A stretch of 64,000 nucleotides of DNA from Candidatus Marinacidobacterales bacterium (GCA_965247365.1 CBDFHB010000002.1:2002567-2066566), one strand, 5' to 3'; shown: positions 2,741 through 46,866, counted from the stretch's first letter. Numbers and translations are program-made. Notes: generated by a model from the sequence alone, not told the origin.

Positions 2741-3186
2741 CGGTGAGGTTCGTTCGTGCAAATCAGGCCTTGAACGGAACCCTCGGCAGCCCCCCCCCGA
2801 ACCCTTCTAACCTTTGTCGGCTTTGAGGAGCTTCGTCCTGCTCATGCTGAGGTATGGGCAAGCCCTCGAACGTCGCTTAGACGGCGACTGAGAGCTTCGT
2901 TTTATCGCAGCGAAAGATTCGAAGCCGCGCCCGGCTCGGGTCCGACCCGGCGCGAGAGCCCGTTTCCCATGTAAGACGAAATCCGGGGTGGAAAACCTCC
3001 CTGCCAACGCCGAAAATTCTCCCGCCGATTCCGTGCAATGAAAAGGGTGGTCACTTGCCCCTCGACTAGACTCGGTTTCGACCGCGAGAGACGAACATCC
3101 ATAAGTTCATGGGCGCGATTCTGCTCCATGGCTTTCGCCTGGCAAGCGCGAACGTATAGGATGCACAGATTGTCAGGAGGCTCCCA

Positions 3187-4547
<1,361 letters not shown>

Positions 4548-4551
<4 letters not shown>

Positions 4552-5816
4552 AGGCCCTTTGCTTGTTGCTGTTGTCGGCTTCCGCCGCGTCTGCTCAAAC
4601 CATTGCCATCGTCGGAGGTACGGTCCATACCGTCGACGGCGAGGTCATCGAGAACGGCATCGTTCTCATCGAGGACGAGCGCATCCAAAACGTCGGCCGT
4701 TCCCTCTCGATCCCGTCGAACGCCAGGCGGCTCGATGCCGATGGAAAAATCGTGACGCCGGGGCTCATCGACATCGGGACTTCTGTCGGCCTCATCGAGG
4801 TCCTAAGCCTTGCCGACACCCGCGACGCGAGCCTCGACAACGCAGACCCTTTCCGGCCCTCCTTTCGGGTGACCGACGGACTCAACCCGTACTCCATCGT
4901 CATTCCTGTCACGCGGCTCGGTGGCGTCACGACCGTGGCGAGCCTGCCCTCGGGAGGCATTCTCGCGGGGCAAGCGGCCGTCATCGACCTCACAGGATGG
5001 CGCGCCGCCGACATGATCGTGCGCGAACCGGCGGCGCTGGTCGGCGCGTTCAATCCCGCGGCCGCGGAAACGGTGGGAGGGGCCCGAGGTGCTCTTGGGC
5101 TTCGCCTGCGTGAAGCTCTCGACGACGCCCGTTTCTATGGCGAGAACGAGGAGGCGTTCGCCTCGGCCGCGCTCCGCGAGCTTTCGATGTCGAGGCTCGA
5201 CCTCGAGGCGCTGAAAAACGCTATGAGCACCGTGCTGCCCTTCGTCGTCCGCGCCTCTAGCACCGCGGATATCGATGCAGCGATGGCTCTCGCCGGCGAG
5301 TATGACCTCGATCTCGTCGTTCTCGGTGGCGAAGAGGCGTGGCGACGAAGCGGCGATCTCGCCGCGTCGGAAACGCCGGTGATCGTCAAAGCCTACGCGA
5401 ACGTTCCGGTGCAGTTCGATCGTCTCGGAACGCGTTTCGACAACGCCGCCCTCCTCGCAAGGGCAGGTGTACGCGTCGTGCTCTCCACGCTCGACACGCA
5501 CAATGCAAGAAATCTCCGTTTCGAGGCAGGGCAGGCCGTCCGCCACGGGATGAAGTGGGAGGAGGCGCTTCGCGCTGTGACGTTGACCCCTGCGGAAGTC
5601 ATGGGCATCGCGGACACGCACGGGTCACTCGAGACGGGCAAAACGGCGAACGTCGTCGTGTGGTCAGGCGATCCCTTCGAGCCCGCCTCCGCGGCGGAGC
5701 ACGTCTTCATCCGGGGCCGCGAGATCGAGCACGACTCCCGACAGATTCGACTGCTCGAGCGCTACAAGAACCTCGACGGCCGACCCGTGCAATACCTGGG
5801 AAACCCAACACCCTGA
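4548..5816 (+). CDS. Secreted amidohydrolase family protein (second gene of the pair)
   Basis: Start overlaps the upstream stop (ATGA). Has a signal peptide and the motif TPGLIDIGTSVGL. Same fold family as the upstream gene but divergent. Confidence 0.7.
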
Positions 5817-9946: not shown

Positions 9947-10273
9947 CGTTTATGTTGGCATCATCGGCCGGCGGTACCAGAGCCGTCTGCAGTAAGAAAC
10001 CTGGTATCACGACAAAAATCCAATCTTGTCCAGCCAATTGGTCCTGGGGTGACGTGCGAACGGCTGAGATGGTTCCAACTTGGTTCCAAACCAGCGTGCC
10101 CTACGGTGCCCTAAGAGTCTTATCTCGCGCCGTCTTCCTTTGTTTAGGTGCTCTTAGGTTACGGTGGGTCTTCCTGGTTCGTAAGGGTGCAAATTCGTAA
10201 TCAGCAGGCCGGCGGTTCAAATCCGCCCGCCGGCGGAACATGTCAACAACATTGAGACACTCGCGAGCTGCAT

Positions 10274-11407
10274 TTAGTGAGCCTCGATTAACTTTCGGCG
10301 ACTGGTGATGTCCGCGTGGTCGACGTCTGCTTCGCTCGCGATCTCGTTGGGTGAAGCAGAAAAAGGGGGTACCCCAGGTATGGACGACGCCGAGAGAATG
10401 GCTCCTGCGGCATCCTGGAGCGTCGTTTTCTGCGGCGGCGGGTTGATCCAGGCCTGAGGAGGCAAAACGGGAGGTTGTGGCGTTCCGCGAACGAAGCGCT
10501 CGGGATGAGCACGCTGAGCCTCGAGAAGGATCTGGCGCCGAGCGGTGGTGAGTTGTTCGGCGCGACCGTAGTGAACGTCGGCCGGTGTCATAAGGCCGAC
10601 CCCCGAGTGCCGGTGGTCATTGTTGTAGTAGTCGAAGAAACCGCGGCAGAACAGCCGGCTGTCTTGGATGGAACCAAAACGGCTGGGGAACTGAGGGCAA
10701 TACTTGAGCGTTTTGAACTGAGACTCGGAGTAGGGATTGTCGTTCGAGACGTAGGGTCTGGAGTGGGTCTTGGTCACGCCGAGGTCTGCCAAGAGCAAAG
10801 CCACGGACTTGCTTCGCATCGAGCTGCCACGATCCGCGTGCATGGTGAGCTGGTCTGGTTCAATGTTTTGCTTGCGACAGCTCTCGGCGATGAGGCGTTT
10901 CGCGAGCTCGGCGCTTTCTCGGTGAGCCAGCATCCAGCCAACCACGTAGCGGGAGAAGATGTCGAGGATGACGTAGAGATAGTAGTAGGTCCACTTGACG
11001 GGGCCACGAAGCTTCGTGATATCCCACGACCAAACCTCGTTGGGCGCCTCGGCCAACAGCTCCGGCTTGGCGTAATTCGGATGGCGCAGTTGGTTCCGGC
11101 GCTCTCGGACCTCGCCGTACTTTTCCAAAATCCGATACATCGTGCGAATCGAGCAGAGGTAGATTCCCTCGTCCAGAAGCGTGGCCCACACCTGCGCGGG
11201 CGCCTTGTCGACGAAACGCTCACAGTGCAAGGCTCCGAGGACCTTCTCGCACTCGGTCTCGTCGAGGGCTCGGTGCGGCCGAGGACGACGCTTCGGTTTG
11301 GGCGTCACCAGCTGGCGCCTGCGATACAACGTGGAACGAGCCACACTCAGAGCCTCGCAGGCTTCCGCCGTCTGCCCAATCTGTCCCGCCAGCTCCTCGG
11401 CCGCCAC
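10274..11407 (-). CDS. IS transposase OrfB (DDE integrase-core/rve domain), 377 aa
   Basis: WSWDITKL...YLYVILDIFSRYVVGW...HADRGS...YNNDHRHSGVG are typical rve-domain DDE motifs. Protein is identical in all three copies. Confidence 0.8.
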   Translation of the reverse strand: MAAEELAGQIGQTAEACEALSVARSTLYRRRQLVTPKPKRRPRPHRALDETECEKVLGALHCERFVDKAPAQVWATLLDEGIYLCSIRTMYRILEKYGEVRERRNQLRHPNYAKPELLAEAPNEVWSWDITKLRGPVKWTYYYLYVILDIFSRYVVGWMLAHRESAELAKRLIAESCRKQNIEPDQLTMHADRGSSMRSKSVALLLADLGVTKTHSRPYVSNDNPYSESQFKTLKYCPQFPSRFGSIQDSRLFCRGFFDYYNNDHRHSGVGLMTPADVHYGRAEQLTTARRQILLEAQRAHPERFVRGTPQPPVLPPQAWINPPPQKTTLQDAAGAILSASSIPGVPPFSASPNEIASEADVDHADITSRRKLIEAH

Positions 11408-11409
11408 AA

Positions 11410-11877
11410 TCAGTCGTTCTCGTCGCTGTCGAGCGGATTCAGGGGGATCCCCAGCAGTTCGGAGGCTTTTTTTTGGATCTCCAACATCGTCTCCACTCGA
11501 GCCAGGCGACGTTGGAGCCGGGCGTTCTCGCGCTCGAGCTCCTTGACCCGTGGATCCTCTGCCTTCGCCTTCCGGCCTCGCTTTCTCGACGTCAACCCCG
11601 CCTTCGCGATCTCGTCACGTTGGCGGCGCCAACTCGATAGCTGCGACGAGTACAGGCCCTCTCGACGCAGAAGTGCCGCAATATCCCCGACACCCTTGCA
11701 GGCGTCGGCCTCGCGCACTAGCCGCAGCTTGTACTCCGCGGTAAAGCGTCGACGCTTCGCTTGCTCACTCACTTCCGTTTCCGGGACCCCCGCCGCATCG
11801 CGGCCGGCGGGATCTCCAGTCGCCCTACGGGCTCCTTCCGTTCCCGCCGGGGTCATTCTCTCAATCAATGAACTCAT
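11410..11877 (-). CDS. IS transposase OrfA (HTH transposase_8-like plus coiled coil), 155 aa
   Basis: RRRFTAEYKLRLVREA...GDIAALLRREGLYSSQLSSWRRQ HTH, followed by a leucine-zipper-like C-terminus. Lies 2 nt upstream of OrfB without overlap. Confidence 0.75.
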   Translation of the reverse strand: MSSLIERMTPAGTEGARRATGDPAGRDAAGVPETEVSEQAKRRRFTAEYKLRLVREADACKGVGDIAALLRREGLYSSQLSSWRRQRDEIAKAGLTSRKRGRKAKAEDPRVKELERENARLQRRLARVETMLEIQKKASELLGIPLNPLDSDEND

Positions 11878-11947
11878 TGATGATCCTCCTCCGCCCTACA
11901 CACTAATTTCAAGGGGCGAAGTGTCTCAAGGATGTTGGCACAGAGGG

Positions 11948-12141
11948 GCTTCGCTTGCTCACTCACTTCCGTTTCCGGGACCCCCGCCGCATCGCGGCCG
12001 GCGGGATCTCCAGTCGCCCTACGGGCTCCTTCCGTTCCCGCCGGGGTCATTCTCTCAATCAATGAACTCATTGATGATCCTCCTCCGCCCTACACACTAA
12101 TTTCAAGGGGCGAAGTGTCTCAAGGATGTTGGCACAGAGGG
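11948..12141 (-). mobile_element. Partial head-to-tail copy of the same IS (left end plus first ~41 codons of orfA, 194 bp) abutting copy 1
   Basis: The sequence from IRL through ...GAGCAAGCGAAGC is immediately followed by a fresh IRL (CCCTCTGTG...). This produces the short ORF 11874..12071. Confidence 0.7.
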
Positions 12142-27752: not shown

Positions 27753-27871
27753 ATGCTGACTCAACATCTCATCAGGAATCTCGTCTCGGTCGGGCTAACT
27801 GTAGCCCTTTCCACTTTACTGGCTGCCCCAGCAAGTGCGGATACACCATGTCCAACGCTTCTATTCGATCT
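27753..27871 (+). pseudogene. 5' fragment of a secreted-protein gene truncated by the IS256-like element
   Basis: MLTQHLIRNLVSVGLTVALSTLLAAPASADTPCPTLLFDL, then the ORF reads into the IS256-like end (SRFPWK). Confidence 0.4.
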
Positions 27872-28167
27872 GTCCCGCTTCCCGTGGAAATAAGAATGGC
27901 GTAACCTCCGGTTAACCAAAACCAAACCGCGCCTGGAAAGGCGAGGAGGAGGATTACGCCATGAAGAAGCCTACCACCATATCGAACGAGTCAGTAAGCG
28001 AGTACCGGGAGTTCGTCCAGCTTCGGCTGCGCAAGCGGGTGCTGGAGGCGATCGAGGTCGTGCTCGAGGAGGAAGTGGAGCAAGCGCTGGGGTGTCGTAG
28101 CTACGAGCGTGCGGAAGGACGTCGTGGTTATCGCAACGGGGCCGAGACCCGTCGCGTGACGACGGCC
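27872..28167 (+). mobile_element. IS256-family element, 5' fragment (left IR plus first ~69 codons of the transposase), cut by IS3-like copy 3
   Basis: GTCCCGCTTCCCGTGGAAATAAGAATGGCG... and MKKPTTISNESVSEYREFVQLRLRKRVLEAIEVV...ETRRVTTA are co-linear with the intact copy at 32819..34174 (same left end, about 97% aa identity). Confidence 0.7.
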
Positions 28168-28237
28168 CCCTCTGTGCCAACATCCTTGAGACACTTCGCC
28201 CCTTGAAATTAGTGTGTAGGGCGGAGGAGGATCATCA

Positions 28238-28705
28238 ATGAGTTCATTGATTGAGAGAATGACCCCGGCGGGAACGGAAGGAGCCCGCAGGGCGACTGGA
28301 GATCCCGCCGGCCGCGATGCGGCGGGGGTCCCGGAAACGGAAGTGAGTGAGCAAGCGAAGCGTCGACGCTTTACCGCGGAGTACAAGCTGCGGCTAGTGC
28401 GCGAGGCCGACGCCTGCAAGGGTGTCGGGGATATTGCGGCACTTCTGCGTCGAGAGGGCCTGTACTCGTCGCAGCTATCGAGTTGGCGCCGCCAACGTGA
28501 CGAGATCGCGAAGGCGGGGTTGACGTCGAGAAAGCGAGGCCGGAAGGCGAAGGCAGAGGATCCACGGGTCAAGGAGCTCGAGCGCGAGAACGCCCGGCTC
28601 CAACGTCGCCTGGCTCGAGTGGAGACGATGTTGGAGATCCAAAAAAAAGCCTCCGAACTGCTGGGGATCCCCCTGAATCCGCTCGACAGCGACGAGAACG
28701 ACTGA
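28238..28705 (+). CDS. IS transposase OrfA (copy 3)
   Basis: Identical protein to the other copies. Confidence 0.75.
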   Translation: MSSLIERMTPAGTEGARRATGDPAGRDAAGVPETEVSEQAKRRRFTAEYKLRLVREADACKGVGDIAALLRREGLYSSQLSSWRRQRDEIAKAGLTSRKRGRKAKAEDPRVKELERENARLQRRLARVETMLEIQKKASELLGIPLNPLDSDEND

Positions 28706-28707
28706 TT

Positions 28708-29841
28708 GTGGCGGCCGAGGAGCTGGCGGGACAGATTGGGCAGACGGCGGAAGCCTGCGAGGCTCTGAGTGTGGCTCGTTCCACGTTGTATCGCAGGCGC
28801 CAGCTGGTGACGCCCAAACCGAAGCGTCGTCCTCGGCCGCACCGAGCCCTCGACGAGACCGAGTGCGAGAAGGTCCTCGGAGCCTTGCACTGTGAGCGTT
28901 TCGTCGACAAGGCGCCCGCGCAGGTGTGGGCCACGCTTCTGGACGAGGGAATCTACCTCTGCTCGATTCGCACGATGTATCGGATTTTGGAAAAGTACGG
29001 CGAGGTCCGAGAGCGCCGGAACCAACTGCGCCATCCGAATTACGCCAAGCCGGAGCTGTTGGCCGAGGCGCCCAACGAGGTTTGGTCGTGGGATATCACG
29101 AAGCTTCGTGGCCCCGTCAAGTGGACCTACTACTATCTCTACGTCATCCTCGACATCTTCTCCCGCTACGTGGTTGGCTGGATGCTGGCTCACCGAGAAA
29201 GCGCCGAGCTCGCGAAACGCCTCATCGCCGAGAGCTGTCGCAAGCAAAACATTGAACCAGACCAGCTCACCATGCACGCGGATCGTGGCAGCTCGATGCG
29301 AAGCAAGTCCGTGGCTTTGCTCTTGGCAGACCTCGGCGTGACCAAGACCCACTCCAGACCCTACGTCTCGAACGACAATCCCTACTCCGAGTCTCAGTTC
29401 AAAACGCTCAAGTATTGCCCTCAGTTCCCCAGCCGTTTTGGTTCCATCCAAGACAGCCGGCTGTTCTGCCGCGGTTTCTTCGACTACTACAACAATGACC
29501 ACCGGCACTCGGGGGTCGGCCTTATGACACCGGCCGACGTTCACTACGGTCGCGCCGAACAACTCACCACCGCTCGGCGCCAGATCCTTCTCGAGGCTCA
29601 GCGTGCTCATCCCGAGCGCTTCGTTCGCGGAACGCCACAACCTCCCGTTTTGCCTCCTCAGGCCTGGATCAACCCGCCGCCGCAGAAAACGACGCTCCAG
29701 GATGCCGCAGGAGCCATTCTCTCGGCGTCGTCCATACCTGGGGTACCCCCTTTTTCTGCTTCACCCAACGAGATCGCGAGCGAAGCAGACGTCGACCACG
29801 CGGACATCACCAGTCGCCGAAAGTTAATCGAGGCTCACTAA
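28708..29841 (+). CDS. IS transposase OrfB, DDE/rve (copy 3)
   Basis: Identical protein to the other copies. Confidence 0.8.
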   Translation: MAAEELAGQIGQTAEACEALSVARSTLYRRRQLVTPKPKRRPRPHRALDETECEKVLGALHCERFVDKAPAQVWATLLDEGIYLCSIRTMYRILEKYGEVRERRNQLRHPNYAKPELLAEAPNEVWSWDITKLRGPVKWTYYYLYVILDIFSRYVVGWMLAHRESAELAKRLIAESCRKQNIEPDQLTMHADRGSSMRSKSVALLLADLGVTKTHSRPYVSNDNPYSESQFKTLKYCPQFPSRFGSIQDSRLFCRGFFDYYNNDHRHSGVGLMTPADVHYGRAEQLTTARRQILLEAQRAHPERFVRGTPQPPVLPPQAWINPPPQKTTLQDAAGAILSASSIPGVPPFSASPNEIASEADVDHADITSRRKLIEAH

Positions 29842-29882
29842 ATGCAGCTCGCGAGTGTCTCAATGTTGTTGACATGTTCCGC

Positions 29883-30100: not shown

Positions 30101-30503
30101 CAGGAAGACGCTTGGCGGTTCCACTTCGCCGTCAGAGGTAGATCGCCCCTCGAAGTTAGGAGGCGAACGTCCGCACTCGCACGTCCACCACAATGCGCAT
30201 TCGAGGAAGTTCCGAGACTTTCTTGACCAAGGTTGGCGCGGGGGGTCCTATGATCGCGAGCCAAAGGGGCTGGCTGCCGAGCTCGTTGGCAACGTAGGTG
30301 GCGACGACGACGCTGAAGGTTTCGAGGGCCGAGGAGAGAAGCACCGCCGGTTGCCTCAAGACTTGGGAAGAAGATTGGCTTCGCCACACCTCCCGATTTC
30401 TGCCGCGTGTTTCGACTGCGCGCTGGGAGATTCGGGACTGCCCCTGACACACCCCGCGAGGGCGTCGAATGTGTGTAAGTGATTAGAAGAGAGAGTATTA
30501 GAA

Positions 30504-30657
30504 GTTCCAAAGTAGTTGGAACTAGGTTGGAACTAAACGTCGACGCTGGCACTACTCGGCCGCAAGTTCCACGATGGTTCCAGCGTAGTTCCAAGCTGTT
30601 GGAACCGGGTAATGCGCTGAAAACAACGGCTCTAGCTCTCATTAGTTCCAAGTTCCC
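30504..30657. repeat. Iteron/operator-like cluster of about nine GTTCCAA / TTGGAAC heptamers, including two 4-nt-spaced palindromes
   Basis: AGTTCCAAagtaGTTGGAACT, taGGTTGGAAC, aaGTTCCAC, GGTTCCAG, GTTCCAAgctgTTGGAAC, GTTCCAAGTTCCC. Located just 3' of the RepA-like gene. Confidence 0.55.
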
Positions 30658-30664
30658 TCCCTTG

Positions 30665-31756
30665 CTATGGCCAGCGGAGGTACCTCCGCTTTCCTTTCTG
30701 ACCTTTCACCGTGATGACCCCGATCCGCTCAGCTTTTTCTAGGATTCGATGGAGAGAGGTTCTAGGGATGTCACGTTTCATTGCCTCCTCCCAAGTGAAG
30801 GGCTCGCCGAACGGCAGCTTGTCGAAATGCTTCTTCTCGGCAGGGGAAAAGGCTTTCGTGGCCAGGTCGGTGTTTGACGTGCGAACCCAGTGAGTTGGCG
30901 CGTGTTCGCCATCGATGGTGATGATGTTCTGGTCGAGGATGAGGGGTCCGAGTTCGGACTCGCCACGCCGAAAGCCCGCCAGAACGACGTACCCCTCCTC
31001 CTGCGACAAACCGAGTCGAACGTCAGTGTTGGAAATCCATGCGACTGAGCCCAGCACGTTGAAGAACCACGCCTTAGGATCCTTCAGAAGGCTGGGTCGT
31101 GGCTTCTTGCTGTCCGGCTTGCGGAGGTGGTGCGTGAACAAGATCGCCGGATACGGTTTCGTTCGGCGCAAGTGAGAAATGGTTTTGAGGAAGTCTCGCG
31201 TGCGCCACTCTTTCGCCGCTTCGAATGGTATTAGCTGAAGCGCCGTGTCGATTATGATCAGTCCGTAGTCACCTCCCGTGCTGAGGTTCGTCAACCATTT
31301 CAATCTTTCAGATTCACTCTCCGCGAGAACGCTTTCGAGCTCTTGGCTATTCCGATCCTTAGGATTCCCTCTAACGAACAAATCGATGTTGGGGCTCGCA
31401 TCGACTCCAAGGTGTTCAGATTGACGTCGAATCATCTTGTGACAGCGCTCTGCTCCAGACTCGAGGTCGATGATCAACACACGGGCCTCCTTGGTCTCGA
31501 ATCTCAAGAACTCCGTCCCCGAGGCGACCGAGAGCGCCGTTTGCGCGACCAAGGGTGTCTTCCCTACGTTCGGGTCGCTCGCCAAAATCGCAATTTCCCC
31601 TTTGTCCAAGATGTGGCATATCAGCGGAACTCTGGGCGGGGGACGGTTCTTGAGCGTTTCGCTGAGTGGGATTGGGCGGTTCTGCTTTCTCACTGGATCC
31701 TCCGCCACCCGCCTCGCCAGGACCCCCGGGGATTGGTCACGGTCCTCCAGACCCAC
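30665..31756 (-). CDS. RepA-like RecA-family AAA ATPase (AAA_25-like, mobile-element replication/primase-associated helicase type) with a C-terminal winged-helix
   Basis: Walker A ILASDPNVGKTPL, Walker B GLIIIDT. C-terminal SLHRILEKAERIGVITVKGQKGKRRY resembles a wHTH. Confidence 0.6.
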   Translation of the reverse strand: MGLEDRDQSPGVLARRVAEDPVRKQNRPIPLSETLKNRPPPRVPLICHILDKGEIAILASDPNVGKTPLVAQTALSVASGTEFLRFETKEARVLIIDLESGAERCHKMIRRQSEHLGVDASPNIDLFVRGNPKDRNSQELESVLAESESERLKWLTNLSTGGDYGLIIIDTALQLIPFEAAKEWRTRDFLKTISHLRRTKPYPAILFTHHLRKPDSKKPRPSLLKDPKAWFFNVLGSVAWISNTDVRLGLSQEEGYVVLAGFRRGESELGPLILDQNIITIDGEHAPTHWVRTSNTDLATKAFSPAEKKHFDKLPFGEPFTWEEAMKRDIPRTSLHRILEKAERIGVITVKGQKGKRRYLRWP

Positions 31757-31929
31757 TTCGCCTCTCCTTATTAATGGCCAGTCGGCCGGCGACCGCGGCT
31801 CTCGCGCACGGCACTATCCCGGGACGGATGTTCTTCTCTCGAACCCGAGAAACATCGAGGAAGAAGGAATCGTCCCAAGCAGGTTTGCCACATCGCCGCG
31901 GTTTGAAAGCTAGCGTTGTGCTCAAGCAA

Positions 31930-32130
31930 TTAGGCGTCCCGCGAGTTGTCGAGGAACGGCTTCGCCGATGAGCCAATTCCCGCGGCGCGCGAGCTCATCC
32001 ACTTCTCGACGTCGCTCTCAAGCCACGCTACCGCCGCGCGACCGATACGGCGTCGCTCAGGGAAGAGGCCGTCTCGCTCCAAACGCCAGGTCGTTACGCG
32101 CGAGAGACCTGTTTTTCTTATTACTTCGTT
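31930..32130 (-). CDS. AlpA-family HTH DNA-binding protein (phage/ICE regulator or excisionase-like), copy 2; start uncertain
   Basis: C-terminal ...EVIRKTGLSRVTTWRLERDGLFPERRRIGRAAVAWLESDVEKWM within ORF 31930..32301. No canonical ATG; a non-ATG start is likely. Confidence 0.4.
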   Translation of the reverse strand, partial: NEVIRKTGLSRVTTWRLERDGLFPERRRIGRAAVAWLESDVEKWMSSRAAGIGSSAKPFLDNSRDA

Positions 32131-32185
32131 AGATTTTGTTGCCTGCCCGGTCCTTCGCGCCGGAAGCGGGGCTTTTTTTACGAGT

Positions 32186-32401
32186 TCACACCTCCTCACG
32201 TGTGCTCCTCCTCCAGCCACCGTCGTGCGCCTTTCCGCCGCTTTTCGTCCACTCCTCCAGCTCTTCCTTCGAGAAGCGAATCCGACGTCCCAGGCGAACA
32301 CTCGGGATCAAGTTTTCCCGCGCCATTGCGTATATGTGCTGCTCAGTGGTCCTGAACAGCTGCGCGACTTCCTGAACCGTTAGGAACTCATTTTCGGACA
32401 T
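32186..32401 (-). CDS. AlpA/excisionase-family HTH DNA-binding protein, copy 1
   Basis: LTVQEVAQLFRTTEQHIYAMARENLIPSVRLGRRIRFSKEELEEW is an HTH_17/AlpA-type motif. Confidence 0.55.
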   Translation of the reverse strand: MSENEFLTVQEVAQLFRTTEQHIYAMARENLIPSVRLGRRIRFSKEELEEWTKSGGKAHDGGWRRSTREEV

Positions 32402-32485
32402 ACTGAGAGCTTCTCAACTCGCTGAGCTCAGAAAAAGGGCGGTTTCGCGACCCCTTGCGAAGTCGCCGTTTAGGAACGACGGGAA

Positions 32486-32752
32486 CTAGAGATTTGTCGG
32501 TCTCCGCCGTCGTCCCTTTTTTGACGGTGGGTCTGGGAGGTTCAAGAGTTCACGCGCGCTCTTCACCGCGTCTTCCACAGTTTTTCTCTTCGGGACTGAG
32601 TCAGGATATGCTGGACGAGTCCCTCCAAAGTACTGGAGTGCGATATCAGAAGTGCTAGTTCCGAGTTGGTGGAGTACCAACCACTCGAGGTCGCGAAATT
32701 TCATTCGAGTCGGAGCCTTCTTCCATCCCCGGCTCTGGGCCAGCTCGAGCAT
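32486..32752 (-). CDS. Small hypothetical protein, possible HTH regulator
   Basis: 88-aa ORF upstream of the AlpA genes on the same strand. Weak LuxR/sigma-region-4-like segment LEWLVLHQLGTSTSDIAL. Confidence 0.25.
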   Translation of the reverse strand: MLELAQSRGWKKAPTRMKFRDLEWLVLHQLGTSTSDIALQYFGGTRPAYPDSVPKRKTVEDAVKSARELLNLPDPPSKKGRRRRPTNL

Positions 32753-32818
32753 TTCCGAACGGTGACGTTTGAGGGCGCGTTGGAACCCGGACGTTATCCT
32801 GTCCTTCGCAGCGGATGT

Positions 32819-34174
32819 GTCCCGAGGTCCGTGGAAAAAGAACAGCGCACCTCCACTCCGTCATCAGGGTATCAGATCAGGCGGCAACCTCCGCGTGTTC
32901 GAGAACCTCGCTCAGACGTTGGTAGCCGTCGATGCGTCGTAGTTGAATCTGTCCAGAGGCGATAAGCCCAAACAGCAAAGCGACCGCGGACTCCTCGCTG
33001 GAGAACGACGCTTGGGTTTTCGTCCGGCGTCGAAACTCGCGGTTGAGATTCTCCAGAGCATTGGTCGTGCGAATCGATTTCCACATGGCACGAGGGAATT
33101 CGTAGAAGGTCAGCAGCTGATTACCGGCCTCCTCTAGGCTTCGGACGACGGCCGGCGCGAGAGGCGTCCACTTGGCGACGAGCTCGTCATAGGCTTTGCG
33201 AGCATCGATACCGTTCTTGGCGTAGACGATCCGGTTGTAGTCACGCCGGAGCTCACGGCGTGCGTGCGCCGGGCAATGTTCGAGCAAGTTGGCGCGCTTG
33301 TGCTCGGTACATCGCTGCAACCGGCACCCCGGCCACTTCTCGAGCGCTTTCGTCAGCCCCTTGTGGCCGTCGCTGATCACTAGCTTGGGAGCCCGGAGTC
33401 CTCGAGCCTGGAGTCCCTCCAGCACGGAGCCCCAATGCGTCGAGGCTTCGCTCACCGCCAGACGCAATGACAACAGACGTTTCTGCCCGTCTGGCGCGAC
33501 CCCGAGCGCGGCCAGTACGGGTACGCTGATCACACGCTTCGCCATTCGCACTTTCAGGTGGAAGCCGTCCAGGTAAACGATCGCGTAGACCTCCTCGCTG
33601 AGATCACGGTTCTGCCATTCTTCGAAGCGCTCCTTCAGCCGGCTAACCACGCGAGACACCGCGCTCTTCGATAGGTGCTCCTCACCGAGCAGTGGTTTCA
33701 GCGCTTTGCGGATCCGGCGGCTATTCGCGCCCGACAAGTACGTCCCCAAGATCGCTTCGTCGACCTCACGAGTCCGGCGCGCGTACCGGGGCAACAGCTC
33801 GCTCCTGAACTCTGTCGTCTCTCCCGTTTCCTCGTCTCGCACGCGGGCTCGTGGCACCCGGAGCTCGCGAGTTCCCACCGCCGTCGTCACGCGACGGGTT
33901 TCGGCTCCGTTGCGATATCCACGGCGGTCTTCCGCACGCTCGTAGCTACGACACCCCAGCGCTTGGTCGACTTCTTCCTCGAGCACGACCTCGATCGCCT
34001 CCAGTACCCGCTTACGCAGACGAAGTTGGACGAACTCCCGGTACTCGCTTACAGACTCCTTCGATATGGTGGTAGGCTTCTTCATGGCGTAATCCTCCTC
34101 CTCGCCTTTCCAGGCGCGGTTTGGTTTTGCTTAACCGGAGGTTACGCCATTCTTATTTCCACGGGAAGCGGGAC
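32819..34174 (-). mobile_element. Intact IS256-family insertion sequence (~1356 bp)
   Basis: Terminal inverted repeats GTCCCGAGGTCCGTGGAAAAAGAAC (32819..) and GTCCCGCTTCCCGTGGAAATAAGAAT (reverse complement at 34174). Encodes the full 402-aa transposase. Confidence 0.75.
32877..34085 (-). CDS. IS256-family (mutator-type) transposase
   Basis: 402 aa. VYLDGFHLKV..., SDGHKGL..., CTEHKRANLL... are IS256 DDE-region signatures. Confidence 0.8.
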   Translation of the reverse strand: MKKPTTISKESVSEYREFVQLRLRKRVLEAIEVVLEEEVDQALGCRSYERAEDRRGYRNGAETRRVTTAVGTRELRVPRARVRDEETGETTEFRSELLPRYARRTREVDEAILGTYLSGANSRRIRKALKPLLGEEHLSKSAVSRVVSRLKERFEEWQNRDLSEEVYAIVYLDGFHLKVRMAKRVISVPVLAALGVAPDGQKRLLSLRLAVSEASTHWGSVLEGLQARGLRAPKLVISDGHKGLTKALEKWPGCRLQRCTEHKRANLLEHCPAHARRELRRDYNRIVYAKNGIDARKAYDELVAKWTPLAPAVVRSLEEAGNQLLTFYEFPRAMWKSIRTTNALENLNREFRRRTKTQASFSSEESAVALLFGLIASGQIQLRRIDGYQRLSEVLEHAEVAA

Positions 34175-35020
34175 GGATCCCTGATTCTCGTGAACCCAGA
34201 TACGGTGATTCGGTGGCACCGGGCTGGCTTTCGGGCGTTCTGGCGTTGGAAGTCACGGTCGCGAGGCCGACCGACAACCAGTACGGAAATTCGCGACCTG
34301 GTTCGTCGGATGGCCAGGGAGAACGAATTGTGGGGCGCTCCTCGGATCCACGCCGAGCTCTTGAAGCTGGGATTTATCGTGTCTGAGCGCACGGTATCCC
34401 GTTACATGCCAAAACGGCTATCCGAACCTGACGCGATCGAACGTTGGAAGACCTTCCTGCGCAATCATCGAGAGCTCATCGCAGCCATGGATTTCTTCAC
34501 CGTGCCTACCGTCACCTTCGATGTACTCTATGTGCTTTTTGTCATTCATCACGCCAGGCGCCTTATCCTCCACTTCAACGTCACGACGAATCCCGGCGCG
34601 GACTGGGTGATGCAACAGCTACGGGAAGCCTTTCCTTACGACACCGCTCCCCGTTTCCTAATCTTCGACCGCGACGCGAAGTTCTCCCGCGCGGTGGTAG
34701 CAACCATCACAGCCGTGGGTACCGAACCGTCACAAAGTGCCTTCCGCAGTCCATGGCAGAACGGAGTCGCGGAGCGATGGGTCGGCTCGGTCCGCCGCGA
34801 GCTCCTCGAGCATGTCGTCATTCCGAACGAGCGCCATCTGCTTCGACTTCTACGTGATTACGTAAGTTACTACCACGCGGATCGAACGCACCTTGGGCTC
34901 GGAAAGGATACTCCCTCGAGCCGTGTGGCGACTCCCAAGCCGTGTAACCGAACGACAGTCGGTTCATTGCCTCGGGTTGGTGGACTTCATCACCGCTACG
35001 AGTGGCGAGCGGCAGCCTGA
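34175..35020 (+). pseudogene. IS481-like (integrase-core/rve) transposase gene, 5'-truncated by the IS256 insertion
   Basis: The listed ORF 34121..35020 begins inside the IS256 end. Host part begins ...LVNPDTVIRWHRAGF..., then the rve core (DFFTVPT...FLIFDRDAKF...HADRTHLGLG). No N-terminal HTH. Confidence 0.6.
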
Positions 35021-35871: not shown

Positions 35872-35956
35872 ACCGACCAGAAGCGACCAGCAGAGACCAC
35901 GTGCGCAAGCCCTGAAAATCCTTGCGTCGCCAATTCAATTCTGGCCGCCGGCACCA
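35872..35956 (+). repeat. Interspersed repeat family copy A (~85 bp), ending in a tRNA-like T-arm plus ACCA
   Basis: ...CGACCAGCAGAGACCACGTGCGCAAGCCCTGAAAATCCTTGCGTCGCCAATTCAATTCTGGCCGCCGGCACCA. Copy B at 41601..41685 is ~85% identical. Confidence 0.5.
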
Positions 35957-36160
35957 CCAAGATCCAACCCGGCTCAACACTTTCCAAGCGTTGGCGTTTT
36001 TCGGTCCGGACACGAAACGTCGGTTCACTTTGCCCCTTCGTCAGTCGGCACTGAGACGGCGCTGACGGCACCTAGGATAAGGTGTCTGAGTCCAGGGAGG
36101 CACGCCATTCTCGACGTAGGAATCATCCTTGCGTATTTCGCCATTATCCTGGGGATAGGT

Positions 36161-40730: not shown

Positions 40731-41600
40731 ATGAAGGCGGTGGGCCTAGCCGTCGCGGGTCTTTCCCTCGTGCTTCTGCAGGGCTGTGGGGGGGGGACCA
40801 CTGCGCGCACCGGAGAGCCCGGCGAGACCACAACTTCGGCGAACGCCGCGTCGGGAACAACCGCCCCGACGACTCCGGCACCGGGTGCTGAGCTGACTAT
40901 CATCATCGATGCAAGCGCACCAGCAGCGTGGGTGGAGGAGTTCAACGGTGTGATGGAAAACTTGAAGCCCCTGCTAGCCCCAAGTCGTCCGAAGCCTCTG
41001 ACGATCCGAGCTTGGCTCGACACGGTTGCGCCTCCAGCAGGTTTCCAGAACGGGCAGTATCTAACAAGCAAAGATGGCGAGTTGGTTCTCGCACTAGAGA
41101 TCAGTTCGTTTGAAATTGAGCATCAGCATGATCACCGCCTGTCAGTTATAGCCCACGAATATTTCCACTGGTATCAGCACTCGCTTCACTCAGGGGATGG
41201 GTTTAGCTTCGAGTGTAAATGGATGATCGAAGGAGCGGCCGCGGCATTTGAATCGATGTACCTTGCTCAATATAACGATATCAATACTTACTTTGAGGAT
41301 GCTCAGCTGCAACATATTCCGTCTGGAGATCCCAACCCTGCTGAGTATGAACTTTACAGCACCTCGGAGACGAATTACGGATATTCGGTATACATGATGC
41401 TCATTCTTGCCCAACACACCTCATTTCAGAAAATCTTTGTAGATTTCTGGGAACAGACGCCTCAAAGTGCGAATTGGAAGAATATATTCTCGGACACCTT
41501 CGGCATGTCTGTCGATGCCTTTTACGACATTGTGAGAACAAAGCCAGACAAGAGTAGTCTTATTCCCTCTCAAGGCACACTGCTCACCGTTCAGTTCTGA
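40731..41600 (+). CDS. Lipoprotein with an HExxH zinc-metallopeptidase motif
   Basis: Lipobox LVLLQGC. T/A/P-rich linker. VIAHEYFHWYQH (HExxH) plus a downstream Glu. Confidence 0.5.
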   Translation: MKAVGLAVAGLSLVLLQGCGGGTTARTGEPGETTTSANAASGTTAPTTPAPGAELTIIIDASAPAAWVEEFNGVMENLKPLLAPSRPKPLTIRAWLDTVAPPAGFQNGQYLTSKDGELVLALEISSFEIEHQHDHRLSVIAHEYFHWYQHSLHSGDGFSFECKWMIEGAAAAFESMYLAQYNDINTYFEDAQLQHIPSGDPNPAEYELYSTSETNYGYSVYMMLILAQHTSFQKIFVDFWEQTPQSANWKNIFSDTFGMSVDAFYDIVRTKPDKSSLIPSQGTLLTVQF

Positions 41601-41685
41601 CCGACCAAAATCGACCAGCAGCGACCACATGCGCGAGCCCTGAAAATCCTTGCGTCGCCAGTTCAATTCTGGCCTCTGGCACCAC
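41601..41685 (+). repeat. Interspersed repeat family copy B (perfect T-arm GCCAG-TTCAATT-CTGGC, then CTCTGGC-A-CCA)
   Basis: Shares ...CCGACCA..CGACCAGCAGCGACCAC.TGCGCGAGCCCTGAAAATCCTTGCGTCGCCAGTTCAATTCTGGCC with copy A. Confidence 0.5.
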
Positions 41686-42362: not shown

Positions 42363-42379
42363 TCTGGATACCTTGCCCG

Positions 42380-42420
42380 TCCGCGAGCCCTGAAAATCCT
42401 CAGTCCGCGATTCGCCCTGC
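42380..42420 (+). repeat. Interspersed repeat family, degenerate partial copy C
   Basis: GCGAGCCCTGAAAATCCT is shared with copies A and B, then diverges. Confidence 0.35.
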
Positions 42421-45088: not shown

Positions 45089-45432
45089 GTTGATTCGCTG
45101 ATGAGGTCGCCAATCTAGGATTGGCATTCGGGAGGTTGCGACTTCCAGAATCTCCGCGCTTTACGAAGGGCTGCCAGGGTCCTTGCAGGGCCCACTTCTT
45201 TTGCACCGTGCCGACCGTCACCGTCGAGAGAAGCCGCCAGGCACACTCCGAGCTTTCTACGATGGGCCGGGAGGTGGCGGCGAAGCCCGCGCGGCGAGTG
45301 ATCCTCGGGGCTGGAACGACTTGGACATTGAATATCGGAGACCTCCACAACACGCTACTTGACCCATTTTCAGCCCATGAGGAGACAGGCCGATTCTTCG
45401 TGACTCAGAAAAGCCTTACTAAGAGGTGTTAG

Positions 45433-45473
45433 TGGTGCCGGGGGCCAGAATTGAACTCGCAACGCAAGGATTT
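45433..45473 (-). repeat. Interspersed repeat family copy D (inverted orientation, 3' T-arm/ACCA part)
   Basis: The reverse complement reads AAATCCTTGCGTTGCGAGTTCAATTCTGGCCCCCGGCACCA. Confidence 0.45.
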
Positions 45474-46409: not shown

Positions 46410-46866
46410 ATCGAGTCGACGGCACACGAACTACGACGCGCTAGGCAGGCGCAAAGCTCACGCGATCTGACCCACATCGCCCCTTCCATCTCAGCTGAAA
46501 ACACTGCTCTACGGCTGCATCTCCGGCTATCGCCAATCTAGGGTCCACATTCGGGAGGTTGCGACTTCGACCCGAGCTCGCTGAGAGCAGCTGTTTCAAA
46601 TCGAACCAACTGTTCCGAAAGTGAACTGAGTTGGTGGGCGACCTGCGAACGAAAAAAAAGAAGCGAGACTGGATTCACCCAACCAATGGAACAGGATGTT
46701 CCAGAATCCAGCCTCGCCACTTTACCGGAGACCGATCTGATACGGGCTCCCCCTCGGACTGTCCCGTATCGGAACGATTGCGACCCCAAATGGAGTCTAA
46801 TCGAGTAACCTTGCAAACGGAGTGCCAACGCCGGGTCGGCAAGACTCGTATAATGGGGACTGAATC

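Follow-up and report, generated by a model that had tools for sequence, protein, structure and literature searches.

What function can be assigned to a RepA-like ATPase gene that is directly followed by an array of short repeats and is enclosed between two insertion sequences? The question is raised by a small module in a stretch of 64,000 nucleotides (the 64-kb window), which an initial annotation had described as the remnant of an integrative or satellite-like element carrying a candidate origin of replication. The ATPase gene and the array probably constitute the replication module of a small integrative element, namely an initiator-helicase together with its origin. This gene-plus-array pair recurs in many distant soil bacteria and thus most likely represents an undescribed type of replication origin. 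The relevant features of the window are as follows.

10071..10089, plus strand: two GGTTCCAA copies, at 10072 and 10083, 11 bp apart
28168..29882, plus strand: IS3-family element with an rve domain, lower boundary of the module
30156..30452, minus strand: 98-aa ORF downstream of the array, fragment or pseudogene
30470..30503, no strand assigned: moderately AT-rich tract, TTCTAATACTCTCTCTTCTAATCACTTACACACA in gene orientation, adjoining the last iteron
30504..30656, no strand assigned: iteron array of nine GGAAC/GTTCC cores, consensus about YTGGAACY
30665..31756, minus strand: 363-aa AAA_25 ATPase with a RepA/DnaB-like RecA fold, the proposed initiator-helicase
31930..32199, minus strand: AlpA-family HTH gene, 89 aa from a GTG at 32199 preceded by the ribosome-binding site GGAGGAGGAG
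32186..32401, minus strand: HTH_17/excisionase-family gene, 71 aa
32486..32752, minus strand: 88-aa ORF with no family match
32812..34179, minus strand: IS256-family element with a 402-aa transposase ORF, upper boundary of the module

The ATPase and its repeat array

The ATPase matches AAA_25 (PF13481) over residues 33-215 (E = 2.1e-19, 70.4 bits, cut-off 27) and carries all the residues that are invariant in the family (K66, E99, D170, R247, R263 and R264); the spacing of the first four resembles that of what we take to be the catalytic residues of RepA. RSF1010 RepA is the best match both in the PDB profile search and in Foldseek (1nlf, E = 6e-10; target-normalised TM of 0.74 to 1g8y), in agreement with the RepA-like assignment made initially. 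RAD51, DnaB, RadA and KaiC score only slightly below RepA in the fold search; nevertheless, the protein does not group with housekeeping RecA/KaiC proteins, the outcome named in advance as adverse to this assignment, RepA being the best match, with primase-fused relatives and recombinase neighbours. PHROG matches include primase and primase-helicase families, and on these grounds the protein looks like a replicative helicase. PADLOC returned no defence-system match for the ATPase, and a role in defence was discarded on this basis.

The C-terminal winged helix that had been proposed for this protein is predicted at residues about 305-361 in the AlphaFold2 model of the full-length ATPase (pLDDT 80.6), and it is found again in a model of the C-terminal domain (CTD, residues about 286-363) by itself (pLDDT 84). 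The best fold matches of this domain are DNA-binding winged helices, i.e., the MCM5 WH, CodY, IclR and MarR. Its predicted recognition helix covers residues 332-345 and includes R337.

The array starts 9 nt past the ATPase stop codon and, in gene orientation, its cores are arranged as > > | < > > > | < < > (> = GGAAC, < = GTTCC). The heptamer array described earlier is therefore present, with exact GTTCCAA at six of the nine cores (within 30504-30651), as are both quoted palindromes, AGTTCCAAagtaGTTGGAACT at 30503-30523 and GTTCCAAgctgTTGGAAC at 30588-30605. Spacings are of 11, 11, 11, 13 and 14 nt (about 11 bp); the repeat unit is 5-7 nt long, with 11-nt phasing. The GGAAC/GTTCC core occurs 9 times in the 230 nt past the stop codon, against 0.52 times per 230 nt elsewhere (Poisson P = 4.5e-9). 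Of the 39 copies of GTTCCA on both strands of the window, 8 lie in 30504-30650. Exact matches to GTTCCAA number 13 over the 64 kb, where 6.6 +/- 2.4 are expected and no shuffle got to 13. The seven matches lying outside the array equal the chance expectation; the heptamer is thus not a common word in the window, this being the other outcome named in advance as adverse to the initial reading. Folding of the array as single-stranded DNA gives z = -3.1, a value that is expected because of the inverted repeats and is not taken as evidence of a structured element. A paralogue of the ATPase in the same genome (P0002, 84% to the window protein P0001) ends in GRELGTNES, the translation of the window's first two iterons, and the second copy, which may belong to an intact element, therefore keeps at least the start of the array.

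The tract at 30470..30503 overlaps the most AT-rich 30-mer of the region and is a candidate DNA-unwinding element. Its AT content is 70%, whereas the GC content of the window is about 58%; the tract is weak in this respect and counts against the origin reading.

The pair of GGTTCCAA copies, also reported in the initial annotation, exists with its 11-bp spacing at a distance of 144 nt from another IS3 copy, beside a T-arm/acceptor-like fragment. It is possibly a scrap of a related array. A similarity search of the pair against all loci gave nothing significant, and a second piece of the element is at best a tentative reading of it. The region has no RNA family match, no tRNA or tmRNA reading was found, and no Rfam family reached the gathering score; the tRNA-like fragments were rejected as RNA, E-value scans having given only chance microRNA matches.

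A decayed copy between two insertion sequences

Upstream of the ATPase, the two minus-strand HTH genes, whose starts were refined by start-codon analysis, were assigned by HMM search to Phage_AlpA and HTH_17, one each, in line with the HTH pair annotated at the outset. The gene at 31930..32199 matches Phage_AlpA (PF05930; E = 8.6e-14, 51.6 bits, cut-off 21) and phrog_2790, an excisionase/transcriptional regulator. That at 32186..32401 matches HTH_17 (PF12728; E = 2.8e-15, 56.8 bits, cut-off 27) and the TIGR01764 excisionase (E = 2.3e-14, 53.5 bits, cut-off 28.8), and its product is 41-43% identical to those of the HTH_17 genes of two related loci, L008 and L010, the latter of which adjoins a tyrosine integrase. 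For both genes, PADLOC gave only the generic HTH of mad1, under the NCBIfam cut-off. The frame of the 88-aa ORF runs on without a stop as far as the IS256 boundary (32811), and the insertion may therefore have removed the 5' part of this gene. On the other side of the array, the 98-aa ORF has no Pfam or PADLOC match, and positions 30240-30401 resemble residues 38-96 of a 424-aa protein of L008 (32% over 59 aa, E = 4e-5, tblastn).

As annotated, an IS element lies on each side of the module. The IS3 element occurs three times in the window, in identical form. The copy at the lower boundary of the module is flanked on its left by a truncated IS256 copy, which makes the junction chimeric, and no target-site duplications are recognisable around the IS3 copies. 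The terminal inverted repeats of the IS256 copy were located. Integrase, primase and structural genes, all stated to be missing, were indeed not found in the module or in the scanned neighbouring ORFs, and there is no recombinase between the two IS elements or in adjacent ORFs. The proposal of a decayed element is borne out by the missing recombinase, by the 98-aa fragment of a 424-aa homologue and by the chimeric IS3 junction. These observations support the view that the window copy is a remnant, whose recombinase and flanking genes were lost to IS activity and which, for this reason, cannot excise. Judging from their sequences, its ATPase and array look intact.

The array in related loci and what it could be

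An array lies downstream of the ATPase in every relative with readable downstream DNA, in most cases with the same syntax, and this comparison lends strong support to the candidate origin put forward initially. In thirteen relatives (L001, L002, L004, L007, L008, L009, L010, L011, L014, L016, L048, L052 and L059) an array of 5-6-nt repeats begins 4-40 nt past the ATPase stop codon, and in L016 it is still present where the ATPase is reduced to a fragment. The array of L036 is split by an inserted IS1595, with the first repeat behind the stop codon and the others past the insertion. Identity to the window protein, where measured, is 24-47% for the ATPases of the relatives. In each locus the core is enriched over the 230 nt past the stop codon, with P values from 6e-3 to 2e-11. 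In the shared syntax, a lone repeat and a spacer precede the dyad core, whose spacings are 13/14-11-8/11; the AT-rich tract comes next, and in some cases there are distal repeats as well. Most relatives have the dyad core (< > > >)(< < < >), and in most the AT-rich tract then follows, reaching 83-90% AT at the matching position in L002, L007 and L008.

A further indication comes from the proteins themselves. In P0006 and P0009, which are close relatives, the arrays are made of CGAAC and the Arg of the recognition helix is lost, the protein reading SSAKLL/ASAKLL in place of the S-x-x-x-R-[LIF] of the other relatives whose arrays are GGAAC/GTTCC; in P0010 the Arg is absent and the array is a degenerate NGAAC. 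The repeat core and the ATPase recognition helix thus change together, in one clear evolutionary event plus one degenerate case, and Arg337 of the recognition helix is predicted to pair with a guanine of the repeat core.

The distribution of the pair was explored by several scans. A DNA-only scan of GTDB genomes with the pattern GTTCCAN{6,7}TGGAACNNNNNTGGAAC gave 68 loci, six of which encode a family ATPase, all in Acidobacteriota; in five of these six the match lies no more than about 110 nt from the 3' end of the ATPase gene. GTTCC-rich arrays also adjoin unrelated genes (L078, L019 and L057), and the word itself is consequently not diagnostic. Protein-pattern scans yielded nothing in GTDB genomes (with alignment A1) or in IMG/VR, and in metagenomes no loci beyond the relatives described. 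Moreover, tblastn found no homologue in 72,556 plasmids or in 50,697 phage records, and the family thus has no known member that maintains a free replicon. The loci come mainly from Acidobacteriota, plus other soil or sediment metagenomes.

The neighbourhoods of the relatives contain a large serine recombinase in L002 and L011 and a tyrosine recombinase in L010, L036 and L052. Since the recombinase is tyrosine or large serine depending on the locus, the array goes with the ATPase and not with the recombinase. These recombinases support the integrative part of the initial description. Its satellite-like part did not hold in the same way: the likeness to P4 and PICIs is an analogy, and genes for hijacking a helper phage (capsid remodelling, small terminase, packaging or interference) are absent both from the module and from the neighbourhoods annotated for L002, L004, L008, L010, L011, L036, L052 and L059. 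At their N-termini, longer relatives of the ATPase have a Prim-Pol, PriCT_1 or DUF3854 domain, and fusion to the NrS-1 polymerase helix bundle also occurs; most loci, the window included, do not encode a primase.

Could the array instead be a transcriptional operator, to which the HTH_17/AlpA proteins or the CTD of the ATPase bind cooperatively and so control a promoter in the AT-rich tract for the downstream genes? HTH_17 genes adjoin relatives of the ATPase, and an HTH_17-like gene accompanies it in almost every locus, so frequently that co-occurrence cannot tell which protein reads the repeats. Furthermore, a co-oriented gene starts beyond the array, about 110-300 nt past the ATPase stop codon, in L002, L004, L009, L010 and L011, and the AT-rich tract could be a promoter. 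However, a consensus scan detected no sigma-70-like promoter in the window array, and five to thirteen helically phased sites with a dyad core and an AT-rich tract fit an origin better. The HTH gene also varies in type (AlpA in the window, different HTH_17 subtypes elsewhere) and in distance, with 3.2 kb between it and the ATPase in L008 and a second ATPase in L052, whereas the array stays at the 3' end of the ATPase gene. Finally, it is in the recognition helix of the ATPase that the change from Arg to Leu coincides with that from GGAAC to CGAAC. A purely regulatory array is thus unlikely, although it deserves to be kept in view; origins and operators often overlap, and the operator reading is in this respect compatible with the origin reading.

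We regard as quite improbable that the array is a centromere-like site for partition or maintenance, served by the ATPase as a segregation or DNA-handling motor. Plasmid centromeres, too, have phased short repeats in opposed blocks, in L078 of Fischerella an unrelated 405-aa ORF is preceded by a GTTCC/GGAAC dyad array of 13 copies, and the rarity of primase genes in these loci would agree with a non-replicative role. Against this, the ATPase is not of the ParA/ParM type, hexameric helicases are its best matches and its relatives are primase-fused; in addition, partition is not needed for elements integrated beside recombinases. As for an attP-like recombination site, with arm-type or enhancer repeats for integrase and excisionase, the adjoining excisionase-family genes and the occurrence of clustered recombinase and RDF sites in integrative elements lend it very little probability, and it was rejected, because recombinase type, distance and position vary while array and core are constant, the array is never at the element end beside the recombinase gene and large serine recombinases are not known to use arm-type sites.

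The proposed origin and its meaning

Among known systems, RSF1010 RepA belongs to the same Pfam family, AAA_25, and is the nearest in structure. RSF1010 RepA has no DNA-binding C-terminal domain; it relies on the RepB' primase and on a separate initiator, RepC, whose iterons measure 20 bp. In the window protein, by contrast, the helicase is predicted to carry its own winged helix, and the repeat length is 5-6 nt. Helicase and origin-binding domain are joined in one polypeptide in P4 alpha, SV40 large T antigen and papillomavirus E1, and here as there short inverted-pair repeats form a dyad that would place two hexamers. These proteins, however, are SF3 AAA+ helicases unrelated in sequence to the window ATPase, and the P4 iterons are TGTTCACC octamers in ori and crr. 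The primase-helicase-winged-helix layout of P4 alpha is resembled by the longer relatives, but not by the window protein, which has no primase domain. Classical iteron plasmids (Rep_3 / RepA WH1-WH2) also have direct repeats, to which the initiator binds, beside an AT-rich unwinding element and the rep gene; their iterons are typically 17-22 bp, and Rep_3-type initiators have no ATPase domain and recruit host DnaB through DnaA/DnaC. In contrast, the repeat unit here is 5-7 nt, and none of the ORFs of the module has a Rep_3-type domain.

The closest parallel in layout is offered by SaPIs, whose Rep helicases bind 6-12 penta- or hexanucleotide iterons directly downstream of rep via a C-terminal winged helix, with opposed iterons flanking an AT-rich region (PMC9371898). 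The likeness extends from the predicted winged helix to the nine cores close behind the stop codon, which form opposed blocks beside an AT-rich tract, and to a module located in a small integrative element with integrase and Xis/AlpA-type genes (PMC9371898). The two differ in that SaPI Rep is an AAA+ ATPase related to SF3/MCM and the window ATPase has a RecA fold of RSF1010 RepA/DnaB (SF4-like) type; no sequence relationship between them was detected, and neither the PDB sequence matches of the ATPase nor its 50 listed fold matches include a SaPI Rep chain. The AT-rich region is central in SaPIs, while the strongest AT tract here comes after the dyad core. Packaging, capsid and interference genes were seen in none of the relatives, and nothing therefore points to a satellite life style. 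Tycheposons are likewise small integrative elements; their recombinase is of the tyrosine or, less often, the large serine type, and they combine an excisionase with a compact replication module of 2-4 kb that has a primase and/or helicase (10.1101/2020.12.28.424599). They differ in that the word "iteron" is absent from the main text of this description, and they are defined by a lineage-specific tyrosine recombinase, tRNA targets and marine cyanobacterial hosts, unlike the loci described here, with their mainly acidobacterial, soil or sediment origin.

The origin reading suggests the following course of events. In intact relatives, the tyrosine or large serine recombinase would excise the element as a circle, probably with the aid of the HTH_17/AlpA-type protein. 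The repeats would be read by the ATPase and not by the HTH_17 protein, its C-terminal winged helix binding GGAAC pentamers phased about one helical turn apart, and the dyad core (< > > >)(< < < >) would place two opposed oligomers, probably hexamers. These would melt the adjoining AT-rich tract and load themselves in the manner of RepA/DnaB-type helicases, so that the ATPase would act as a self-loading helicase and the array would fire as an origin. Priming would be left to the host primase or, in some relatives, to the fused Prim-Pol, PriCT or DUF3854 domain.

A broader proposal, which we advance tentatively and with slightly more doubt than confidence, is that proteins combining AAA_25 and a winged helix are an undescribed class of self-loading RecA-fold (SF4-like) initiator-helicases, whose CTD reads a 3' GGAAC dyad. 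Such a system would be a bacterial counterpart of the double-hexamer origins known from SV40 and papillomavirus and a convergent twin of the AAA+ SaPI Rep/ori pair, serving as the replicon of a family of small integrative elements in Acidobacteriota and other soil phyla. A helicase with its own origin-reading domain and with the origin right behind its gene has been worked out for the AAA+ proteins SaPI Rep and P4 alpha and for viral SF3 helicases. If the proposal is true, the same logic evolved independently on the RepA/DnaB-type RecA fold, the other main helicase fold, and the module, at about 1.3 kb (the gene plus a 190-bp array and AT tract), would be a compact system for studying self-loading of an SF4-type ring that has no loader. 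The array would provide a simple DNA signature for annotating these elements and their remnants. In Acidobacteriota, for which few genetic tools are known, a native minimal Rep + ori cassette could seed replicating vectors.

Genes and repeat array of the module

The genes of the module lie on the minus strand, and their starts were set from start-codon and ribosome-binding-site analysis.

Genes and boundaries of the module (window coordinates)
28168-29882: IS3-family copy, module boundary (the window holds three such copies, all identical)
30665-31756, minus strand: AAA_25 ATPase, 363 aa (AAA_25 E = 2.1e-19)
31930-32199, minus strand: AlpA, 89 aa (Phage_AlpA E = 8.6e-14)
32186-32401, minus strand: HTH_17/excisionase family, 71 aa (HTH_17 E = 2.8e-15, TIGR01764 E = 2.3e-14)
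32486-32752, minus strand: ORF without family match, 88 aa
32812-34179: IS256-family copy, other module boundary

The family matches and the two insertion sequences bear out what the initial annotation had read here, namely two AlpA/excisionase-type HTH genes and an AAA ATPase between IS flanks. As it also stated, integrase, primase and structural genes are absent: neither the module nor the ORFs around it contain a recombinase, primase or structural gene, and those ORFs encode ordinary chromosomal functions (Lon protease, FHA protein, methyltransferase, GH32 and solute symporter).

The array of repeats described 3' of the ATPase gene, including both of its palindromes, was recovered. Over the 230 nt following the ATPase stop codon the core GGAAC/GTTCC occurs nine times, versus 0.52 times per 230 nt elsewhere (P = 4.5e-9); the spacings of 11, 11, 11, 13 and 14 nt approximate one turn of the helix. 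The heptamer GTTCCAA is not a common word: there are 13 copies in the window versus 6.6 +/- 2.4 expected, six of which fall in 30504-30651, and the seven outside the array correspond to chance. For the hexamer GTTCCA, eight copies lie inside the 147 bp of the array versus a window total of 39 on both strands.

Three further signals were observed in the window. A perfect 18-nt palindrome, AGCGGAGGTACCTCCGCT, occupies 30673-30690 in the last ATPase codons, just ahead of the stop codon and the first iteron. A lone TGGAAC-N5-GTTCCA palindrome at 46687-46703, with the same hexamer as the array, may be due to chance. The same may apply to a plus-strand hairpin of terminator type with a TTTTTTT run behind it (32153-32171), which falls in the 5' region of the AlpA gene on the minus strand; no gene on the plus strand lies near it, and the scan gave fewer such sites than shuffled sequences.

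The ATPase family and its arrays

The AlphaFold2 model of the ATPase (pLDDT 80.6) consists of a RecA-like core and a C-terminal domain of the type H-H-strand-H-H-hairpin. RSF1010 RepA, a hexameric replicative helicase, is the best solved-structure match by sequence profile (E = 0.011) and also the best match by fold (1nlf, E = 6e-10; 1g8y, target-normalised TM 0.74), with RAD51, DnaB, RadA and KaiC close behind in the fold search. A separate model of the C-terminal 78 residues is a winged helix (pLDDT 84), whose nearest structures are the DNA-binding winged helices of MCM5, CodY, IclR and MarR. Among 1.84 billion representative proteins, a profile search found 101 relatives below E = 1e-30 and 1062 below E = 1e-10. 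In longer relatives the ATPase domain is preceded by Prim-Pol, PriCT_1 or DUF3854 domains, and the relative P0018 has the helix-bundle domain of the NrS-1 primase-polymerase; PHROG matches of the ATPase include primase and primase-helicase families, and no PADLOC model matched it. The family-invariant residues (K66, E99, D170, R247, R263 and R264) are all kept. Because of the RepA matches, the primase-domain fusions, the PHROG matches and these residues, the ATPase belongs with the replicative helicases of mobile elements; clustering with housekeeping RecA/KaiC proteins, which would have spoken against the initial annotation, was tested and is not so.

In every relative with readable downstream DNA a repeat array begins 4-40 nt after the ATPase stop codon, which strengthens the earlier reading of the array as a candidate origin. 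Such arrays are found in the metagenome loci L001, L002, L004, L007, L008, L009, L010 and L011, whose ATPases are 24-47% identical to that of the window, and, locus by locus, the core is enriched over the 230 nt that follow the stop codon, with P values from 6e-3 to 2e-11. What the loci have in common is the arrangement and not just the repeat word.

Array syntax in gene orientation (> is GGAAC, < is GTTCC; numbers give the offset from the stop codon)
Window: >11 >18, <62 >75 >86 >97, <134 <145 >159, then AT-rich tract
L008: >15, <58 >71 >82, <100 <121 <132 >145, then a tract of ~50 nt, 90% AT at its richest
L052: >20, <82 >96 >107 >115, <128 <135 <146 >160, AT-rich tract, <203 <211

The arrays of L059, L048 and L016 are nearly superimposable on that of L052. 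The core of the array is a dyad, in which one block (< > > >) is followed by its reverse complement (< < < >). In L001 and L007 CGAAC replaces GGAAC with the syntax unchanged, and the predicted recognition helix of their ATPases (P0006 and P0009) reads SSAKLL/ASAKLL; other relatives with GGAAC/GTTCC arrays, including P0018 (24-27% identical), carry S-x-x-x-R-[LIF]. P0010 is without the Arg, and its array is degenerate (NGAAC). Within the genome under study, the window ATPase has a paralogue, P0002, 84% identical to it, whose C-terminal residues GRELGTNES are what the first two iterons of the window encode when translated; therefore, at least the beginning of the array is preserved in this second copy.

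A DNA-first scan of 185,579 GTDB genomes for the pattern GTTCCAN{6,7}TGGAACNNNNNTGGAAC, using no protein information, gave 68 loci, with roughly 35 estimated by chance. A family ATPase is encoded at six of them, all Acidobacteriota. In five of the six the match and the 3' end of the ATPase gene are at most ~110 nt apart, and in the sixth (L036) an IS1595 is inserted between the two. A Gemmatimonadaceae MAG (L017:6940-7090) met the pattern by coincidence, through an unrelated simple tandem repeat, (GGAACGGCGGT)n, of ~13 units.

The word GTTCC alone is not diagnostic, since genomes of Fischerella, Fibrobacteria and Flavobacteria also have GTTCC-rich arrays beside unrelated genes. In a Fibrobacteria MAG (L019:1620-1860), GGTTCCAA/TTGGAAC repeats directly follow the stop codon of an unrelated 535-aa ORF in two clusters, one on each side of an AT-rich stretch, and could represent another pairing of a gene with a 3' array on a different protein. 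In a Fischerella MAG (L078:5200-5345), an ORF of 405 aa with no relation to the ATPase family is preceded by 13 GTTCC/GGAAC copies in a dyad (six, then seven), an array with the look of a centromere or origin belonging to another system.

Kind of element and state of the window copy

The related loci have the appearance of small integrative elements that carry a compact module for replication. They differ in the type of recombinase: the enzyme of L002/L003 and L011/L012 is of the large serine type, and L010, L036 and L052 encode a tyrosine integrase. No relaxase, capsid or terminase genes were seen at the loci, and neither PLSDB plasmids nor INPHARED phages contain homologues of the ATPase. 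In outline they resemble tycheposons, which likewise are small and integrative and have a compact replication module, and PICI-type islands, but no evidence for a satellite life style was found. In L052 (Bryobacterales) a second, more divergent AAA_25 ATPase of 307 aa (3931-4854, minus strand) is found directly upstream of the family ATPase (2767-3930, minus strand), preceded by two HTH genes, with the tyrosine integrase transcribed divergently.

In the window the ATPase and the array look intact and the flanking genes are truncated. A 98-aa ORF lying between this array and the IS3 copy is a gene fragment, with a match to residues 38-96 only of a 424-aa protein encoded at a related locus. A second, truncated IS256 copy (27867-28167) forms the left flank of the IS3 copy at 28168-29882, which cuts it off after 300 nt, the remainder being missing from the window; this junction is therefore chimeric and marks a rearrangement. 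The complete IS256 copy is in turn inserted in an rve-type transposase gene (34180-35020), so that the insertion sequences are nested. The region is an IS graveyard that has been rearranged at least once. As there is no recombinase, the flanking genes are truncated, IS elements lie on both sides and the junction is chimeric, the window copy is a remnant that cannot excise, in agreement with the decayed element initially proposed. Five loci (window, L001, L036, L052 and L059) have insertion sequences of different families (IS21, IS1595, DDE_3, rve/IS3 and IS256) no more than ~1 kb from the array, whose neighbourhood may be an insertion hot spot.

Elsewhere in the window, another IS3-family copy (10233-11947) has its terminal 194 nt exactly duplicated in tandem (11754-11947 = 11948-12141), the duplicate being a partial second copy or an assembly artefact. 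Repeats resembling tRNA 3' halves (T-arm and acceptor, ending ...TTCAATTCTGGCCGCCGGCACCA) lie at 35872-35957, 41600-41685, 45429-45473 (minus strand) and 42378-42400, and also at 10210-10233. Two of them, of 86 nt and 91% identical, are 5.7 kb apart in direct orientation, and one T-arm/acceptor-like fragment adjoins an IS3 copy. ARAGORN and Rfam made no call on these fragments, which could be att-site scars of integrated elements.

Proposed mechanism

The closest worked-out system is the SaPI replicon. The Rep helicases of SaPIs bind penta- or hexanucleotide iterons through a C-terminal winged helix; 6-12 iterons lie immediately downstream of rep, in opposed orientations around an AT-rich region, and Rep self-loads (PMC9371898). 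By analogy, we propose that the ATPase and its array would follow the same Rep/ori logic. The working would be similar, but the ATPase falls outside the SaPI Rep family because its fold differs; RSF1010 RepA, unlike the window ATPase with its predicted winged helix, is without an origin-binding domain. The winged helix, with R337 on the recognition helix, would dock on the phased GGAAC repeats, the dyad core would set up two opposed oligomers, the AT-rich tract beside the array would melt and RepA-like rings would load, with priming by the host primase or by the fused primase domains seen in relatives. From the observed array, its position, conservation and core change, together with predicted folds, domain fusions and gene neighbourhoods, we infer that the ATPase reads the repeats and loads itself, and that the array fires as an origin.

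An HTH_17-like gene is located upstream of the ATPase in nearly all loci, and because of this presence its product is a real alternative binder of the repeats. The ATPase is favoured since the HTH gene is not constant in subtype (in the window it is AlpA that directly precedes the ATPase gene, and other loci have different HTH_17 subtypes), since its distance varies as well (3.2 kb in L008, a second ATPase in between in L052) and since the array stays at the ATPase 3' end throughout. That the array serves as an operator for downstream genes seems to us unlikely, and such a role would be compatible with an origin, not exclusive of it. A centromere-like site is considerably less probable still, given that the ATPase is not a Par-type motor, and recombination arm sites, contradicted by the interchange of serine and tyrosine recombinases, can hardly be expected.

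The interpretation of the module as a replication module with a candidate origin is thus supported and considerably strengthened. No description of an AAA_25 and winged-helix initiator with a 3' iteron dyad was found in the literature searched. The proposed system is of relevance for the mechanism of helicase loading and provides a candidate replicon for Acidobacteriota.
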